Source of the DNA: Vermamoeba vermiformis
Taxonomy: Eukaryota
Assembly (NCBI GenBank): GCA_045837725.1
Contig: JBEWZL010000003.1
Location: forward strand, 372,001-436,000
Direction: 5' to 3'
DNA length: 64,000 nucleotides
How positions within the stretch are numbered: the stretch's first letter is position 1; the number at the start of each line of letters is the position of its first letter. Below are positions 1,603 to 40,082 of the stretch, piece by piece. Both the position numbers and the translations under genes were made by a program. The notes beneath the pieces were generated by a model, which worked only from the letters and a program-made list of their open reading frames with translations, made no database searches and was not told where the DNA came from.

Positions 1603-4600
1603 ATGTCGCAGAGAATACCACCGGTGGTTGTGTTGCGGAAGAGAGAAGGACTAGTTGGTTGCAAGACCTCCCTGTCCCGTATTCCACTAACGCGCACAAA
1701 CTCAAACTCGAACGCGCATCGGACCAAAGTTGGCAAAACATTTTGGCAGCTATTCGCCCCAAACAAAAATAATATTAGAAATGTCCACGTAGAGTAAGTC
1801 ACACGGTCACAGCTCAATTAATAATTATTTTTGTAATTTTAAAATAATAATTTGTTAATGGAAATCAAAATTATTTCTCCGGTACGGAAGCAATTGTTAT
1901 CATTGATTTAATAATAATAATTGTCGTATTATATTCATTATTATTAAAAAAACGGCTAGTTTTTTGCGGTTCTCGTGGTCGCAGTTTTGTTCGCAATTCT
2001 AACGGCTAGTTTTTCAGTGAAATTGCTCGGCAAATTCTACATCAGTGCCCTGACATTGAATTACCGCTTAATCATGCTATTGCATTTGTCAAGCAAATAG
2101 TTGCGAGTAGCAAAGAGTTTACCGAGCCCAACCTGCTGTACTCGCAAAAAACTTGGAAGGTCAGTGCTGTTCGACGTAAGCAATTATTTATTTGAATAAT
2201 TGAATTTGCTAATAGTGAATTTAGGCGAGGATTACAGCACAATTGTGCAAATGGATTGGGACACCGACCCTCTTAATAGCAACGAGCCCGAGCCCGAGCC
2301 TGAGCCAGATCTAATCCCTGATTGCCTCTCTATTGCGCAATTTTCTGACCTAAAGCAGCACATTGATGGGTGTAACAGGCTTGTAGCCAGGTATGTTCTC
2401 TAATTTCATGCTATTTATCTGATGTCGCCGCCGACAGTGGATCTCGCGTTGAGCTACATGACTTTGCTGGGCTACAAATTCGAGTGCTTAATAGCTTCTT
2501 TGAAGAAACAATTTACCAGATATTCAAGCAATCCCTTTTTGACGACATCCAGTTTGTGCCCGAAAAACGGAAAGAAAATCGTGGAGCACTATCATCAACC
2601 AAACGTATCTATGCTGCATATGGCGGCAAAGGTACTGGCATCGAATACAGGTACAGAGTTAAATTTTGTTACGCGCAATCGTATTCACTAAAATGATTTA
2701 GCAATTTGCATCGCTTATCAGTGGATCTATCGCCTCCGTGTATCAGTATACTCTTTCACGCCCTGCAAAGCGTTGGTTATAAGATGGCCGACAACTCTTG
2801 TGTAATGATTGCCTGCTACCCTCCGAGTAATGCGCAGGACATCGAGCTTGCACAAAAGGAGGACCGAGCCAATTTCACTGCTATGTCATTCCATGCTGAT
2901 GGTTAGTGTAATAAGTTTGTGTAAATATATTCAATATTCCTGACGTAGTTTGTAGACGACAAGTACTTGGGGCCAGTCTCTTCCGTGGAAGTGCTCACAA
3001 TTTCCGGTTTCCTGGATCCAAACGATGTTAGCGCAGCAGTTGAACCTGAAGGATGGCATTTTATAGCGCGCTCAAATATTAAGGAGTTTCGTATGTTCCA
3101 TATCCAATATTGTAACCAGAGCTAACACAAGTTAACAGAAGAAAAGAAATACATTTCGTTGCGCGACAACATGCTGCTAGTTCAACCCAAAGGGATGCAA
3201 GAAATTAGTAAACACGGAGTCTTGGGAATGATGTCACCGTTTATTCGTTGGGTAATTACTGTCAGGCAAATAGATCAAGTTCTGTTTGATGAACGGAAGG
3301 CGAAAACAGGTACGTCTACCACAAATAGTTTCGTGCTTTGAATTAACATTACGGCAGGTTGCAACAATCTACCTTCACATTGTTTGCGCGAGTGGACAAA
3401 GGCAGAAGGTCTTCAAAAGTGGTGTAGAAATTTGCGGCCACTTACCAACAGTTTAATGCAACGGCATCGGTCGCAGCTAAGCAATTGTGCTGTCGCTTAT
3501 CCTACCAACAAATTGAAGTCGGTGGCCGCTGCTCTGCTATTCAATTCAGGCCTGCTGTATTGTGCAAGTTGCGATCTCCTTTTTGTTGATGCTCACGAGT
3601 GTCCAGCGAGCAATTCAGCAATATTCGGAACTCGACACCGTTTGACCGTATGTTTACTATTCAATGACCCAAAGCACTAATTAAATAACAGATTGGCGAA
3701 CTGTATACTGATTTGCAATTATCGGAATCAGAATTCACTGGCTCTTCAGTAATTGACGCGGCATTTACTGGGTCAGCTACTGTTGGTACGGATTTTTAAT
3801 CAGAGTACTTGGTGTCGTATTTACATTACATTCATTTTAGGCTGTCATTCGATGATTGTCAATCCAGCCTTTACGGGCAACAAGCTTGAGATGTGGCAAT
3901 CAGGTACTATCCAAGTAGCGGCTGCGAGTAATTCGGAATCAACTAAGTTGTCATTCCGCGATGAAATGGTTATTCATAGCAGTATCAATAAGCTTCCAAT
4001 TGAAGTGGTCATCAAACAGGGCCATTCGCAGTTTATGTACATAGGTATGAGGGTATTGCGCGTGCTATCCAATTTTCTTTTCTAAATTTACAAAGGAACA
4101 TGGTACGCTATGAGCTCAGTATTCTACACGCACACAGATGATTCAGATGGCAAATTTGTTTACGTGCATCAGTTGGTCAATAAGCAAGCGTTCATGGGAT
4201 CAAAACATTGTTTAGATCCGCGAAAGCATTTTGGTAAGTGCTCAAATACGCAAACACGATTTGTGGCTGACTTGAATGTAGCACGCCCGTTGCTAGAGTT
4301 TTTGGTCATCTACACCAACGTTAACTTTAATGACAATGTTTTGCACGATATCTTGCTAGAAGAGCAAGGTATTGTTGTTTTGAAGCAGCTAATGGGTAAC
4401 GTAGATGCGGATGCCGAACTGGCAGTTGACTTCCTTGTACATAATGGCCCTCTGTTTAGTCGTATACTCGACTTAAATGCTTGTATATTCTCTAGACACC
4501 AAGTGGTTTGGCTATTAAATAATTACAATTAACCGCAAACAACAGATTTGGATCGTGTTGTCGGAATTTCCAGAACTCAGTTGTGGTTTTCGGTTAATGT

Positions 4601-23271: not shown

Positions 23272-25497
23272 TTAAAAGTCGTCATCATCGTCAGGAAGGA
23301 TGAATCCTTCTTCGGTTAAAAAAGGTGGCGGAATAACAGTGAGCGGTGGTGGTGGTTCGGCGTAAGCACCCATGAAGTGACTGCTCATTTGTGGCAGCTC
23401 TAAACTGACGCAACGGCCCATTTGCACGTACTCCTTGAGATCTTGGAAATTGTCCACTGCAAACGTATTAGCTAAAGCAAAATCTATCATTAAGTCAGTC
23501 ACTTACCTTTGTACACTGTTTTGTGACACTTGTCGCAATTACGTTGTAAATGCGAATCAGGGCTGGCCTTCAGATTATCCCAAAATAACGGGCACTCAAA
23601 CTCCATGGCACAATTTTCAATGCCACCCTCAGAAGAACTACTCCAACGACCTTGCACGTTATTGTACGATGAGGATTGGAATCGTCGCTTGAACATTGTG
23701 TGCCACGACTTGACTTTCAGTTTTTGGTTTTGAAAGGGGAAGTAGAGCAAGTAAAGAGACTTCCAAATGAGATTTTCCAGCGCTAACTTCGAAAATTGTT
23801 TGTTGACCTATAGAATTACAAATTATTAAGCATGAATTGACAAGTTGAGTTGCACTTACCAAGCGCAGTTCTACAGTTTGACGATGTGATTGTGAGGCTA
23901 AGAACAAACACTGCAGAGCGACTTCTGGTGGCAGCATCGAGAAATAAGCTGTTTGGTCCCTTCTGTAATCGGGAATGGTGCTGACATCGAACTTGAACGG
24001 TCCTGTCATTTTGACCACGAACTCGACCTCTGAATTTTTCGTGAACGACACTCCTGGGAAACAATCCATGCCTTTATGGATGCGCTGGGCATAGGTGCCG
24101 CAAAGCTGACCGTTGAGCGTGAAATATATCTTTCGTTGATTGTAGCTGTCGAGCAAAATACCAGCACCAACTGTGTCGCCTTCAGAGTACTTGGGGAATT
24201 TTTGCACGTTTCTTTTTGTGTTCTGCGACACCAAGCCATCGCAGCAATAGCCGAAGCTGTTCTGTTGATAGCCGAGCAGTTGATTCTGAACGAAGATCTG
24301 ATTGCCAACACCCACACTCACTTTGCCTTCTTTGTCGTTGAGCTTGGTGAAAGTCACTTCAAAGTAGGCAAATGAAGCTGGTATAATGTCGATAGTTGAC
24401 AGGTCCCAAGGTCTGTTTGAGATCAAACTTGCAGCTCTTGGACACTTGTGCAATCTTTCTTTGTTAAGTGCGAATGTAGTCTTGTAAACCAGCAGCACAG
24501 GGGCTAACAACTTCGGCTGCAGGTGAATATCTAATGACGTGTCATTTGTCACTGGCTTTGTGTGTGACGCAGCACACGTGCGACATTCAGCGTAGTCATC
24601 GCATTCGACACAACGGAGTGGATTTTCGGTACAGTCCTTACTGCAGATATTGCAGATGTAGGGGACTGTGCCGTGGTCTTTGAATCTATAACGTGCTTTG
24701 ACTGGATCGACCAGTGGGAATGGATGGTGCGGTGTTTCCTCGAAGGGCGATTCTAGCATCTCGAAGCCTCTGTGACAAGCCGAGCACAGCGTATAATCAC
24801 CGCAGAACTCGCACAGGAATGCTGTTTGAATGCGTTAGAACTCGGACTAATTTTCACGAAAATAAATTCCCCTTCAGCTTACCTTCTTGCTCTGCAGGGG
24901 TCTGGCAATTGGCGCATACTATAGTACCGTGCTCAAAAGGCAGCACTGAGGATTTGAGTATCTTTTGCAAATAAGTACGCCGATCGAAGATGACCGCTGT
25001 CAGTGGATGTGGGTGCTTTAATTGGAGTGCGTTGCGTAATGTAATGAAGTTGATCATTTCAATCCACCGACGACGTTCCTGAAATTCCAAATGAGCATCT
25101 CATATTAAGAATTGACGAGTAAGTACCTTTGACTTTTCAACAGCAAAGAGCTCAGGCTTGTTTTTCGAGCCAGGAATTATCTTAATGGCAAATACTTGGT
25201 CGACTCCTCCCCACAACATTAATGAAGTACTTGATTCAGCGGTGGTCGCTATCGATAAAGGTCCCAAATGGAAGGATTTACAGGCTACTGTTTTGGGCTG
25301 AAAATAATTAGATCTGAGCAAATGGTTTCGACGTTTTAAATTCAGTATAATGAGGAAATTACAAAACCTCCATCTGTATAGCTACTTACCAAGAGAGTCA
25401 CGAGTTCAAGCTTGCCGCTGGAATGGAGTTTGACGAGCAAGTCCTCCCACGATCCATTGATGTAATGGCGCAGATAGCCTTCTTTAACTACAGACAT
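23272..25497 (-). CDS. PH - Cys-rich/ZZ-like - SPRY - F-box - C-terminal Cys domain protein (paralog A)
   Basis: MSVVKEGYL..W (PH-like), CNIC..CVECDDYAEC, SPRY AYFEVT..SFGY..GDTVGAG..IYFTLNG, F-box LPPEVALQCL..LRLV and ENCAMEFECPLFW..CDKCHKTVY..GRCV. Confidence 0.8.
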
Positions 25498-27328: not shown

Positions 27329-29602
27329 ATGGCAACTGGTGTTATTAAACAAGGCAAATTATTGTTCTACGACGGAAAGCAGTCGGATTGGGCCGAAGCG
27401 GAAGTTAAGCTTTTCAAAAACTCTGTCATTGAGTATATAGTTAAAGGAGTAAGTGACTATTGATATATTGCAGCTTGTGCGGATGTTCCCTGTTTGTAAC
27501 CCAAAACAAATCTGAACCGAAGAAATTTAAATTTATTCTTTACATGTGAATTTAATCTTTGGCTTTAGAAAGTCAACAAAATTGTAATGACCCCTCAAAT
27601 CAATGCTTCCCCTACGACGAAGGCTAATTACAGCGGACTTTTTGTGATCAACACGGTCGCCGAAACGTACTTCAATCATGGACCTATGTTCTGCGCCACA
27701 GACCCCCAGGTAATATAGAGCTTAAATATTTAATCGATGGGTTGATTATCTAACTTTTGCGCCTTAAGGAAGGTGAACGTTGGATGCAGCTCATTAACTA
27801 CACTCGCTTAAAGAACAACCTTGAGCTCATGCACAAGCATCCACTAACATTGTGCACGAATATTGTGGACGAGAATAATAAGGATTCAGTTTGTCCTTCG
27901 GTTATTCGTAACGTCAGCTTGAATTGCGCCGGATGCAGCAAGACCGCCGATCCAAAAGAGGGTTATCGCTGCGAGTTCTGCAACTTTGATTTGTGTGCAG
28001 CGTGCAAGCATGCTTTGGAAAAGATAGACACTCTATTGTACACCTCTGAGCACCATCCGCATCCGCTCCTCAAATTTCCGAAGGCCAAGAATCCCTTGTG
28101 GTTCTCTAGCAATTACAACGGTAGCTTCAAATGTGATCGATGCAACAAGAATCAAACGCGTGCCGTGTACCACTGTGTCGAGTGCGGTGACTACGACGAG
28201 TGTCAGTACTGCGGCATTGAAGCGACGAAGAACAAACCTGTCAATCAGCCGCAAGACATGACAATGGACTTGGGCTTCTTGCCTGCCAATATCTTGAAGA
28301 AAGAAGGCAACAAGTTCAGCTTGAGTGCCATCAATGCCAGAAAGGCGCCGCAAGCAACAGCTGTGATGGCCAACAAACACTGGGACCTGTCAACGATCGA
28401 CGACGCACCTGCAGCCAATGCATACTTTGAAGTGACTTTCACCAAGCTCAACGACAAAGAAGGCAAAGTGAGTGTGGGCCTTGGCAATCAGATCTTCGTT
28501 CAGAATCAACTGCTCGGCTATCAACAGAACAGCTTCGGGTACATGAACACTGGTGTAGTCTCGCAGAATGTAGGCGCTAATCCTCAACAATATCCCGCTT
28601 ACACGATTGGTACGCCCTCATATTACAACACACATGACGTGCTAACTTTACATACAGGGGACACCATTGGTGTGGGCATACTTATTGATAGCTACAATCA
28701 GCGCAGACTGTACTTCACTAAGAACGGTCAGTTGCTCGATTTCTACGCTCAACGCGTGCATATCGGCATGGATTGTTTCCCTGCAGTGTCCTTCACTCGT
28801 GGCTCGGGAGTTGAATTCGAAGTCAAGCTGACTGGTCCTTTCAAGTTCGATCTCAACGGCTTGCCGAACTACAGACCCGACAGAGTGAATCGATTTGAAT
28901 CTATTCCCAGCGAAATTATGGGAATTTGTTTTGCTTACGTGGCGACAAAACCTTCACAAGCCGCCTTGCTCCGCAGAGTACGCATTGAAAGTAATGTCTT
29001 TGACTTGATGTTCTAACGTTAGCGCAGGTTTCAAAGAAATGTTCCGAAGTTGCTGGCGGCAATATCGTGTGGAAGAGTTTGTACTTGAGCCGATGGCCCA
29101 AACAAAACGCCAAGCTGAATGTCAAGTCGTGGATCAAGTTCTACAAGCGCCGCAAAGACGTTGAACGATCACCTATATCTGTCACTGGTAACAACGCTAT
29201 CGAGAACTGCGACTTTGAGTTTGAATGCCCGCTCATCTGGGAGACCCTGAAGACAACGAACAAAGAAGGTGAACGATATTGCGACAAGTGCAAAAAGACT
29301 GTGTACGAGGGTAAGTCACACTGAGATAGACACATGAGCTGCGTATCTCATTCTTGTAATTAGTGAATGATGACAACACCATGCAAAACTACATCGAGCT
29401 CGGACGTTGTGTCACATTCTTGCCCAAGATTGACCCTCTCAGACCTCCCATGATGCCGGAACCTCGTCTCATGGGATTGCCACCCCAAATGCCGAAGCCA
29501 GTGCCCAAGCCCTATCAGAACGCGACTGTCAGAAATCAGTCGAAAGCTGCTAACCTTCTTGCACCTCCTGTAGCTGATTTGGGCGATATTGAGTTTGACT
29601 AA
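27329..29602 (+). CDS. PH - Cys-rich/ZZ-like - SPRY - F-box - C-terminal Cys domain protein (paralog B)
   Basis: Same domain order as 23272-25497: YRCEFCNFDLC, CVECGDYDEC, SPRY, IPSEIMGICF and ENCDFEFECPLIW..CDKCKKTVY..GRCV. Confidence 0.82.
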
Positions 29603-38316: not shown

Positions 38317-40082
38317 TTACGCGCTATACTTATCGATGATGGATTTAAGTGGTTGAACGCCCAGATTTGCTCCGCAGATCACCAGCACAACTGATTTGCC
38401 AGCCAATTTGTCAGCTTCCTAATAAGATGTATTAATATGGATGTATTGTCCGTGATGTAAGTACCTTGAACAACGCTGCGACGCTGCAGCCAGCAGAACC
38501 CTCGATAACCTTGTTGTGTTTTTCGAGCATCAAGTAGATCCCCTTCGCAATGTCATCTTCTTCGACTAGCGAGATGTACTCGACGTATCTGCCCACTGAT
38601 TAGTCGCGAATGGTTTAATAATGTCACTAGCACCTACCGCTTGGTCAGTTCGAATGTGATGTTGTCCTCGCGTTCAATGCCTCCAGCAGTGGCGTCAGAG
38701 AGTGTTGGTCTGCCCTCAATGTCCACGATGTGTCTTGCTTCAATGCTCGCCCACATCGCTGCGTCGTTCACTGGCTGCACACCAATCACATTCGTCTTGC
38801 TCTGCGTCAATGGGTTTTGCTTGAAGTACGCAGCAATGCCTGCAATCAGTCCTCCACCACCAATGGGCACAATCACTGCATCGGGCGAGACTAAAGAACA
38901 ATGACAGGTCAGTACTTGTCAAGGGGACAGATATTTTTGTTAATTTTCACGGAACAGGTCATCTGTCCCATAAATATCACTCGATCAATAGCAACAATAG
39001 TTATATATCTATATTAAGGGCATCGATATTTGCGGATGCATGTGCTTTGTGTTACATCGTATGTAACTCATTGGAGAGTATTTGGTGAGTGCGCTGATCT
39101 TGACGCGTCCAATTCGGTTCTAACACTCTTTACAGACTGAAGATCAAAAGGTACTTGGTTCGATTCCAAGCTTACGGGCCAGGCCTCTCTCAGTAGAGGT
39201 CTGGTTCATTAAACACGAGCTGCGATCATCCGGCTTTTTTTTTGCGTGTCTTACCTTGATCAGGCTCGAACTTTTTAAACTGTTCGACAATCTCAACGCC
39301 AATGGTGCCTTGACCAGCAACGATCTCAAAGTCATTGTACGGCGAGATGAACGGCAGATTTTTCAGCTTGCCTTGACGACGTGCCTCCATTTCAGTCTGT
39401 TCAACGTGTCAGAGCTAAGTTCGAACTTCAATGCTTCATTACCTCCACGCAGTCCTCAGCATGAAATTTGAGCTCAATGTCCTTGTTATCGCCAATCATT
39501 GCACGCAGTTTGTCAATCTTTGTTTGCGCGGCATTTGTTGGCAAGTACACCTCACCCTAGTGGCATTGTTAACAATCTGACAGATCTCAATCGAAGGTAC
39601 ATACTCCGAGCCCAAAGTGCTTCAGCGCATTGACCGTTGCTAGGGCATGATTTCCTTAATATAATTAATGAATACTTGGCTGTACCAAGCCAGTATTAAT
39701 TTATTTTACCTGTGGATGCTGTTGTAAACTTGGTATACCCTAAAATAATTTTGTTATCAATCAATGGCTATTAGTAAGTTATGTGGTATTGGATAAATTA
39801 TTTTTCGGAATATTACAAAGTATTTTATGGTCAGATCCGCCGTGGATCTTATTTACCTTTTGTTCTGTTGACATCTAATTTGTTATACGCGCCTCTAACT
39901 TTAAATGAACCAGTTAAATTCTCGGATTCCAACTTCAAATAGACTCTGATCGGCTTCTTGTCGGAGCTTAATGTTGCATTGACAGCTTTGGTTAAAAATT
40001 CTGAGTAGATCAGAGGCGTAGGACTTAAGTACTGTCTAATACGCTTCTCAGCTAATTCAATCTCTTGATGTAACTGCTCCAT
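38317..40082 (-). CDS. PLP-dependent threonine/serine dehydratase (fold type II, no ACT domain)
   Basis: TPL..YLKLESENLTGSFKVRGAYN, ASTGNHA, ISPYND..VAGQGTIGVEI, VPIGGGGLIAG, IEGSAG and VICGAN. Confidence 0.92.
39057..39181 (+). tRNA. tRNA-Phe(GAA)-like gene interrupted by a 51-nt GT-AG intron (39085-39135), antisense inside a dehydratase intron
   Basis: Spliced sequence: TCGTATG TA ACTC ATTGGA GAGT A TTTG^A CTGAAGA TCAAA AGGTA CTTGG TTCGATT CCAAG CTTACGG G CCA. The D, anticodon and T stems pair perfectly; the acceptor stem has one U-U and one U-G. Confidence 0.75.
39235..39243 (+). terminator. Possible Pol III terminator (T9) downstream of the tRNA-like gene
   Basis: A run of 9 T lies ~55 nt after the cloverleaf. 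Confidence 0.4.

Follow-up and report, generated by a model that had tools for sequence, protein, structure and literature searches.

Can a gene with the shape of a transfer RNA (tRNA) depend on the spliceosome for its fold? Introns are taught to fall into separate classes: spliceosomal introns belong to transcripts of RNA polymerase II (Pol II) and to a few small nuclear RNA (snRNA) genes, and tRNA introns are removed by an endonuclease and a ligase, from position 37/38 or from bulge-helix-bulge motifs. The question is raised by a locus in a stretch of 64,000 nucleotides (nt) from Vermamoeba vermiformis (GenBank assembly GCA_045837725.1, contig JBEWZL010000003.1, positions 372,001 to 436,000 of the forward strand), referred to here as the window. 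On the plus strand of this window, the two halves of a Phe(GAA)-type tRNA-like gene are separated by 51 nt with the signals of a messenger RNA (mRNA) intron. Our best explanation, to which we assign a probability of about 0.35, is that this is a gene of RNA polymerase III (Pol III) type whose mRNA-type intron is removed by the spliceosome. That the cloverleaf is licensed by the spliceosome, and that this would be the first tRNA-type gene with a functional mRNA-type intron, situated in its anticodon stem, we regard as a serious possibility that falls somewhat short of an even chance. The interpretation as a spliceosome-matured tRNA, put forward in a preliminary description of the window, is partly supported.

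A cloverleaf in two halves and the insert between them

When the 51-nt insert (39085-39135) was removed in silico, as the preliminary description had proposed, ARAGORN called a tRNA-Phe(gaa) of 74 nt, whose acceptor stem includes one U.G and one U.U. Of the 21 stem pairs in this spliced form, 19 are Watson-Crick, one is G.U and one is U.U, a degree of pairing that, despite a G+C content of 42%, is consistent with selection for the fold. At -14.2 kcal/mol and 30% of the ensemble, the cloverleaf is the best predicted structure, and its four arms, with stems of 7, 4, 5 and 5 base pairs (bp) and a 7-nt anticodon loop, were obtained only after removal of the insert. Direct reading of the sequence agrees with ARAGORN on the two-half cloverleaf and the arms claimed for it, namely a D arm (ACTC/GAGT) with a 6-nt loop in the 5' half, and a T arm (CTTGG/TTCGATT/CCAAG) in the 3' half, which also has a variable loop of 5 nt, AGGTA. 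In the GT-AG placement, the insert lies between positions 30 and 31, i.e., in the anticodon stem.

Excisions of 51 nt shifted by -3 to +3 all still yielded a Phe call, and ARAGORN's own placement of the intron is 2 nt further 3' (at 32/33), giving a stem closed by G.U and the loop TTGAAGA. Only the GT-AG excision, or an equivalent cut 1 nt upstream, produces five Watson-Crick pairs together with the canonical C-U-GAA-G-A loop. The statement that only exact removal gives the anticodon stem therefore holds for the full stem and the canonical loop, but not for the Phe call as such. The expectation that tRNA scanners would miss the gene must likewise be narrowed: with default settings ARAGORN found no gene in the 64-kb window, and Rfam also misses this one, but with its intron option ARAGORN found the tRNA-like gene in the raw window, as its sole call in 64 kb. 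On 20 dinucleotide-shuffled windows, ARAGORN made no call in any when run without introns and one call in 20 when run with them. When each of the 39 intron-like motifs of the window was removed in turn, a tRNA call resulted in one case out of 39, that of the insert at 39085-39135. The Rfam tRNA model RF00005, which has a gathering score of 29 bits, was applied to the genomic, unspliced sequence and to the separate halves. The 3' half alone matched it with 22.5 bits (E = 0.0029, model positions 30-71, truncated on the 5' side), the match beginning exactly at 39136, and the 28-nt 5' half alone had no Rfam tRNA match.

The insert was compared with the criteria of a U2-type GT-AG intron, that is, a 5' GTRAGT, a branch site CTRAY about 10-20 nt from the 3' end, a terminal YAG, and a length typical of the genome. 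It begins with GTGAGT, contains CTAAC with the branch A 12 nt from the end, and closes with CAG. The window has 39 GTRAGT..CTRAY..YAG motifs of 44-99 nt, whereas 20 shuffles contained 7.4 on average, so that short introns of this kind are abundant in the genome. The 39 motifs have a median length of 54 nt, and their branch A lies most often 11-12 nt from the 3' end. A length of 51 nt and a branch distance of 12 nt fall within this distribution, which bears out the claim that donor, branch point, acceptor and length match those of the mRNA introns of this genome. We estimate the joint chance that a given 51-mer has GTRAGT, a correctly spaced CTRAY, and YAG at its edges to be around 1e-6 to 1e-5. 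By every sequence criterion, the insert is an ordinary spliceosomal intron of this genome. Because of the shuffle, motif-removal and joint-chance results, the tRNA body and the intron-likeness of the insert are both taken as real features. Two other origins were considered for the insert and rejected. An introner family is not indicated, as an all-against-all comparison of the 39 motifs gave matches of only 12-17 nt, none of them with 39085-39135. Neither is the insert a coding intron, since joining 39084 to 39136 meets a stop at 39138-39140 and creates no reading frame.

Motifs for the tRNA splicing endonuclease are lacking. No bulge-helix-bulge with outer helices was found over 11 excision offsets, two mirror arrangements and four bulge registers, the best candidate being an asymmetric 4-bp TTTG/CAGA helix without an outer helix. 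Nor is the insert at 37/38, where cutting would give G33 and the anticodon AGU. The only recognisable signals for removal are therefore spliceosomal.

The layout around the two halves fits, as far as sequence can tell, a Pol III type-2 gene with a 54-nt trailer. The B box is a full match to the consensus, and the A box has two mismatches. The T9 run downstream is one of only eight runs of eight or more T on both strands of the window (128 kb). TTTT is absent from 39026-39234, but 48% of random 210-mers lack it too. The trailer opens with a 10-bp hairpin that includes an encoded CCA, and its distal part pairs with the 31-nt leader; the leader/trailer duplex has a computed energy of -19.8 kcal/mol, compared with -11.0 +/- 3.1 in 300 shuffles (z = -2.8).

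In the minimum-energy fold of the unspliced RNA, a helix of 7 bp forms between positions 39095-39101 of the insert and 39140-39146, which belong to the anticodon loop and 3' stem, and the 5' strand of the D arm is paired to the 5' splice site; the unspliced RNA would therefore be unable to form the anticodon arm. The mechanism that we propose begins with a conserved Phe(GAA)-type small-RNA gene that has internal A and B boxes, has a T9 run as its terminator, and sits in antisense orientation within one of the introns of a dehydratase gene. Pol III would produce a primary transcript whose anticodon arm is blocked by the intron. Exact removal of GT...AG by the spliceosome would yield the 5-bp Watson-Crick anticodon stem and the canonical C-U-GAA-G-A loop, and RNase P and RNase Z would then trim the leader and the CCA-hairpin trailer. 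We infer these three steps, i.e., transcription by Pol III, spliceosomal excision and end processing. The gene may be one member of a lineage-specific, low-GC tRNA-like family with paired leader and trailer, in which splicing, not the tRNA endonuclease, gates folding and end processing.

Relatives and RNA reads

One water metagenome (X5), and three RNA runs that carry the species label of the source run, were aligned to 38700-39450. From the RNA runs, 5, 9 and 23 reads aligned, most of them 90-95% alike, corresponding to a strain with 5-10% divergence in exons; this degree of likeness points to a different strain or species as their source. Five reads of one RNA run, X23, match approximately 39026-39073 with a single difference (39061 A>T). 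Three X23 reads extend at least 28 nt upstream of 39026, i.e., at least 58 nt upstream of the tRNA start, and by hand count 15 of these 28 letters agree with the window. The X23 reads are suggestive of an orthologous locus. Six reads lie over 39026-39078, with their first-mate strands split 3/3, too few for a claim of plus-strand transcription. Single reads of the diverged strain span 39142-39297, that is, the 3' half and the trailer, at 90% or better. The element is conserved: in the diverged strain the leader, both halves and the trailer are much better kept than the neighbouring sequence of the host intron, which cannot be aligned. This conservation of flanks and halves argues for a functional element over a decaying pseudogene.

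A metagenome contig of 288 nt is almost identical to the window across 39125-39374, with three substitutions and T11 in place of T9. Its strain is at least 99% identical elsewhere, and its 3' tRNA half is identical. In its 36 unaligned letters upstream, the same intron can be recognised: it has retained the anticodon-complementary segment, CTAAC and the 3' end, differs at about 13 bases of the interior, and has one additional base after the branch site. In this related strain, 39201 C>T changes a G-C pair of the trailer hairpin to G.U, by our reading of the pairing. That is, a near-identical strain keeps both the insert and the 3' half, the kind of conservation in a relative to which the preliminary description had attached importance.

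A second metagenome contig, of 638 nt (X5 record 4), matches only 39029-39072, with three differences, and its upstream flank is unlike the window. Beyond the match lies the rest of a tRNA that has no intron; its leader, acceptor 5' strand and anticodon stem are those of the gene in the window, but its loop is of the Lys(UUU) type. We read this tRNA as a paralogue or a more distant orthologue, and it suggests that low-GC tRNA-like genes with different anticodons form a family. Because the acceptor 5' strand, D arm and anticodon stem are common to both genes, unlike in housekeeping tRNAs of different identity, the gene in the window appears to belong to a small lineage-specific family of odd, low-GC tRNA-like genes, and not to be a housekeeping tRNA-Phe. 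An origin from a mitochondrial or bacterial tRNA is not favoured: G37 is of the eukaryotic and archaeal Phe type, and the contig with the Lys-type gene has a depth of 5.4, similar to that of the nuclear contigs (2.9-4.5).

Exact patterns taken from the 3' half and the leader had no match in viral contigs and none in prokaryotic genome contigs. One locus (L001), retrieved from metagenomes with a degenerate pattern of the D arm and anticodon stem, was rejected as a chance match on an unrelated bacterial or phage-like contig with a tRNA-His. The tRNA-His-like gene on it (1953-2043, minus strand; Rfam 43.2 bits, model positions 7-64, acceptor stem uncovered) adjoins an open reading frame from about 1883 that resembles, by reading only, a Ro/TROVE protein, and the arrangement recalls bacterial Y-RNA-like tRNA mimics.

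Weighing the explanations

A number of observations weigh against a Pol III-type gene matured by the spliceosome, beginning with its atypical body. Of the nucleotides conserved for tertiary structure in tRNAs, U8, A14, G18-G19, A21, U33, G53-T54-T55-C56, A58 and C61 are present by reading; the exceptions are G10 and R15:Y48, with A10:U25 and U15:A48 in their place. The D loop has 6 nt and lacks G20, the discriminator is G73, the acceptor stem has a U6.U67 mismatch, and the G+C content is low, as given above; U15:A48, the short D loop, G73 and the U-U mismatch had all been listed in the preliminary description. The identity elements of phenylalanyl-tRNA synthetase (PheRS), from work in yeast and human, include G20 and A73. 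The gene has the anticodon GAA and G37, in a C-U-GAA-G-A loop of the eukaryotic cytosolic Phe type, but G73 and no G20. Together with the odd, low-GC body, this agrees with the earlier caution that the gene may not be a standard Phe decoder, and its product is probably a specialised tRNA or tRNA-like RNA. In addition, CCA is encoded right after G73, which is unusual for nuclear tRNA genes.

To these features must be added that Rfam, run on the genomic sequence, found no match at gathering score in the window, and no tRNA match in 38700-39500 even at E<=10, and that ARAGORN found no second copy of the gene in the window, leaving a single locus. The 5, 9 and 23 reads from the diverged strain contain no joint of any kind, and their depth is zero over 39090-39141. 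The 288-nt contig stops 36 nt before 39125, short of the 5' splice site, and the diverged interior of its intron could come from one complex mutation. Pairing with the D-arm strand sequesters the 5' splice site in the minimum-energy fold predicted for the unspliced RNA. The intron-less Lys-type version implies that the family does not need the intron, and thus that the copy in the window could be damaged. Finally, Pol III transcripts are classically regarded as poor substrates for splicing, and were reported by Sisodia et al. in 1987 not to be such substrates.

The main rival is a disabled copy. According to this explanation, a full-length intron was inserted into one member of the tRNA-like family, by reverse splicing and reverse transcription or at the level of DNA, and is never spliced out; the locus would be a young pseudogene, or its leader, trailer and halves would serve another purpose, e.g., as an element of the host intron. 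It would account for the lack of spliced RNA among the few diverged-strain reads, for the atypical tRNA features and the Rfam score below gathering, for an encoded CCA and a low G+C content that are unlike those of working nuclear tRNA genes, and for an intron-less Lys(UUU)-type relative with the leader, acceptor 5' strand and anticodon stem in common; and a fresh insertion would show perfect signals without selection. However, the four stems are all intact, as are the T9 terminator and the B box, the interior of the intron has changed between two strains while its branch site and 3' end were kept, and the flanks of the element are far better kept in the diverged strain than the surrounding host intron. 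We hold a disabled copy to be only slightly less likely than our best explanation. Improbable is the word we would use for a Pol II route, in which the insert is an intron of an antisense non-coding transcript and splicing builds a tRNA-like module that is cut out by RNase P and RNase Z, in the manner of mascRNA/MALAT1. The spliceosome does normally act on Pol II transcripts, three X23 reads reach at least 58 nt upstream of the tRNA start, splicing opens no reading frame in view of the stop noted above, and the pairing of the 31-nt leader with the trailer recalls the leader-trailer interaction reported for MALAT1 (PMC8457004). Yet a layout with A and B boxes, a T9 run and no internal TTTT fits Pol III, the read strands are mixed and the reads far too few for an antisense transcript, and no evidence of a promoter or of poly(A) was found.

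Less likely than either are a repeat and an endonuclease-processed intron. In the former case, which we consider very improbable, the gene would be a unit like a short interspersed nuclear element (SINE), or a retro-copied tRNA, with no tRNA function. The block 39029-39072 does occur in at least one other locus with unlike flanks, CCA is encoded, and the location is intronic. A tRNA-derived SINE would be expected in numerous dispersed copies, to have either an A-rich tail or target-site duplications, and to have a head that starts from tRNA +1. Here there is no second copy in 64 kb, neither an A-rich tail nor a target-site duplication is apparent on reading, the shared block, in contrast to the head of a SINE, begins 30 nt ahead of the tRNA start, and the compensated stems imply structural constraint. 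Least credible of all is that a non-canonical tRNA intron is cut at or near 32/33 by the endonuclease, and that its resemblance to a GT-AG intron with a branch site is coincidental. The intron option with which ARAGORN finds the gene does model a tRNA intron in the anticodon loop, and the 7-bp complement of the intron to the anticodon loop and 3' stem, which is kept in the related strain, is a hallmark of tRNA introns. The absence of a bulge-helix-bulge at all 11 offsets, the position away from 37/38, with the G33 and AGU anticodon that excision there would leave, and the very small chance estimated for all the splice signals at the edges of one 51-mer count against it.

Setting of the locus and comparison with known systems

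The tRNA-like gene lies, in antisense orientation, within a minus-strand gene for a pyridoxal phosphate (PLP)-dependent threonine/serine dehydratase (38320-40082), with PF00291 on the two flanking exons. The closest homologue of the dehydratase, a protein from a eukaryotic transcriptome (P0001), is 91% identical over the exon and aligns to the window in six pieces. Its residues 187 and 188 are joined across 39256 to 38891, which fixes a host intron of 364 nt, with the signals GTAAGA...CTGAC...TTTAG. The host gene has at least four spliceosomal introns; since the other verified ones are 44-46 nt long, the 364-nt intron is exceptional. The next-best matches to the dehydratase have about 54-60% identity, and the only named ones among them are bacterial, several from Legionella. 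The host may be a bacterial gene acquired by the eukaryote, with introns gained later.

The same 364-nt intron also contains, on the sense strand of the host, a sequence resembling a box C/D small nucleolar RNA (38904-38970, minus strand). By reading, it has a C-box-like GATGA and a terminal stem of 5 bp, and its D box, CTGA, overlaps with the branch-site region of the host intron; Rfam matches it weakly to SNORD20 (17.5 bits, E = 5.5, where the gathering score is 43). Elsewhere in the window, two long open frames, at 23659-24834 (minus strand) and 27754-29016 (plus strand), both have SPRY and ZZ-type zinc-finger domains and may be paralogous genes a few kb apart.

Table 1. Parts of the tRNA-like element and of the intron that hosts it (positions in the window).
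Feature	Position	Strand	Description or basis
tRNA-like gene, two halves	39057-39084 + 39136-39178	+	Phe(GAA)-type cloverleaf, halves separated by 51 nt
Leader block	39026-39056	+	kept 5' of the tRNA-like body; complementary to the trailer
5' half	39057-39084	+	acceptor 5' strand, U8, A9, D arm, A26, 4 nt of the anticodon-stem 5' strand
A-box-like sequence	39064-39074	+	inside the 5' half, at the D arm
Spliceosomal-type intron, 51 nt	39085-39135	+	sequence signals, typical length and spacing
5' splice signal GTGAGT	39085-39090	+	intron start
CTAAC branch site	39120-39124	+	branch A at 39123, 12 nt from the intron end
CAG	39133-39135	+	intron 3' end
Anticodon-complementary intron segment	39095-39101	+	complement of anticodon loop/stem 39140-39146
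3' half	39136-39178	+	A31, loop CTGAAGA (anticodon GAA), TCAAA, variable loop, T arm, acceptor 3' strand, discriminator G73
B box	39157-39167	+	in the T arm of the 3' half
Genomically encoded CCA, foot of a 10-bp hairpin	39179-39204	+	sequence and fold computation
3' trailer, leader-complementary	39205-39234	+	duplex computation
T9 run, candidate Pol III terminator	39235-39243	+	54 nt past the acceptor end
Host intron, 364 nt, of the PLP-dependent threonine/serine dehydratase gene	38891-39254	-	tRNA-like gene inside, antisense

The literature that was searched, mostly outside subscription journals and including passages of PMC12530127, PMC11282704 and PMC3978253, contained no tRNA gene with a spliceosomal intron, in line with the earlier remark that none had been seen described. 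If the insert is indeed removed by the spliceosome from a Pol III-type transcript, a spliceosome-dependent, tRNA-shaped gene would break the partition of intron classes as it is taught. It would show that an mRNA-type intron can be gained and retained by a Pol III-type small RNA that is no part of the spliceosome, it would allow the gain of introns by reverse splicing or by intron transposition to be studied on a natural example, and it would represent a new way to mature a tRNA-like RNA. Since Infernal/Rfam and tRNA scanners in their default settings do not see split genes of this kind, the genomes of protists and fungi may contain more of them than have been counted. Were the copy disabled, it would still illustrate cleanly the insertion of a whole intron into non-mRNA DNA.

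The nearest precedents are introns of snRNA genes, whose presence is ascribed to aberrant reverse splicing at the catalytic centre of the spliceosome. mRNA-type introns are reported in the Pol III-transcribed U6 snRNA gene of Schizosaccharomyces pombe and in the U1, U2 and U5 snRNA genes of Rhodotorula hasegawae (titles cited in PMC5855946). Like the insert studied here, they are short GT-AG introns with a branch site in genes for small structured non-coding RNAs. The U6 gene of S. pombe also has internal Pol III promoter elements, and in these snRNAs, as we would predict for the element in the window, the mature fold exists only after spliceosomal removal. Those snRNAs are, however, parts of the spliceosome, whereas the element is tRNA-shaped. 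Non-canonical tRNA introns in Archaea, Cyanidioschyzon merolae and nucleomorphs have a bulge-helix-bulge and are cut by the tRNA splicing endonuclease (PMC3978253). They resemble the insert in that they lie outside 37/38, including in the anticodon stem, in that their removal restores a cloverleaf, and in that the intron pairs with the anticodon region. They nevertheless require a bulge-helix-bulge, which is lacking here, and are without GTRAGT and CTRAY, which are present here.

In mascRNA and MEN-beta, RNase P and RNase Z release tRNA-like modules from long non-coding RNAs made by Pol II. There a tRNA-like fold acts as a processing module, with leader-trailer pairing beside it, as would be the case for the element, in which such a pairing is predicted. 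Rfam gave no mascRNA match in the window; mascRNA is from vertebrates, has no intron and has a poor anticodon arm, in contrast to the perfect Phe anticodon loop found here. Lastly, the location of a small RNA gene within a host intron is shared with the tRNA and snoRNA genes that are nested in the introns of protein genes. Nested tRNA genes are normally standard ones without mRNA-type introns, whereas the element described here carries one.

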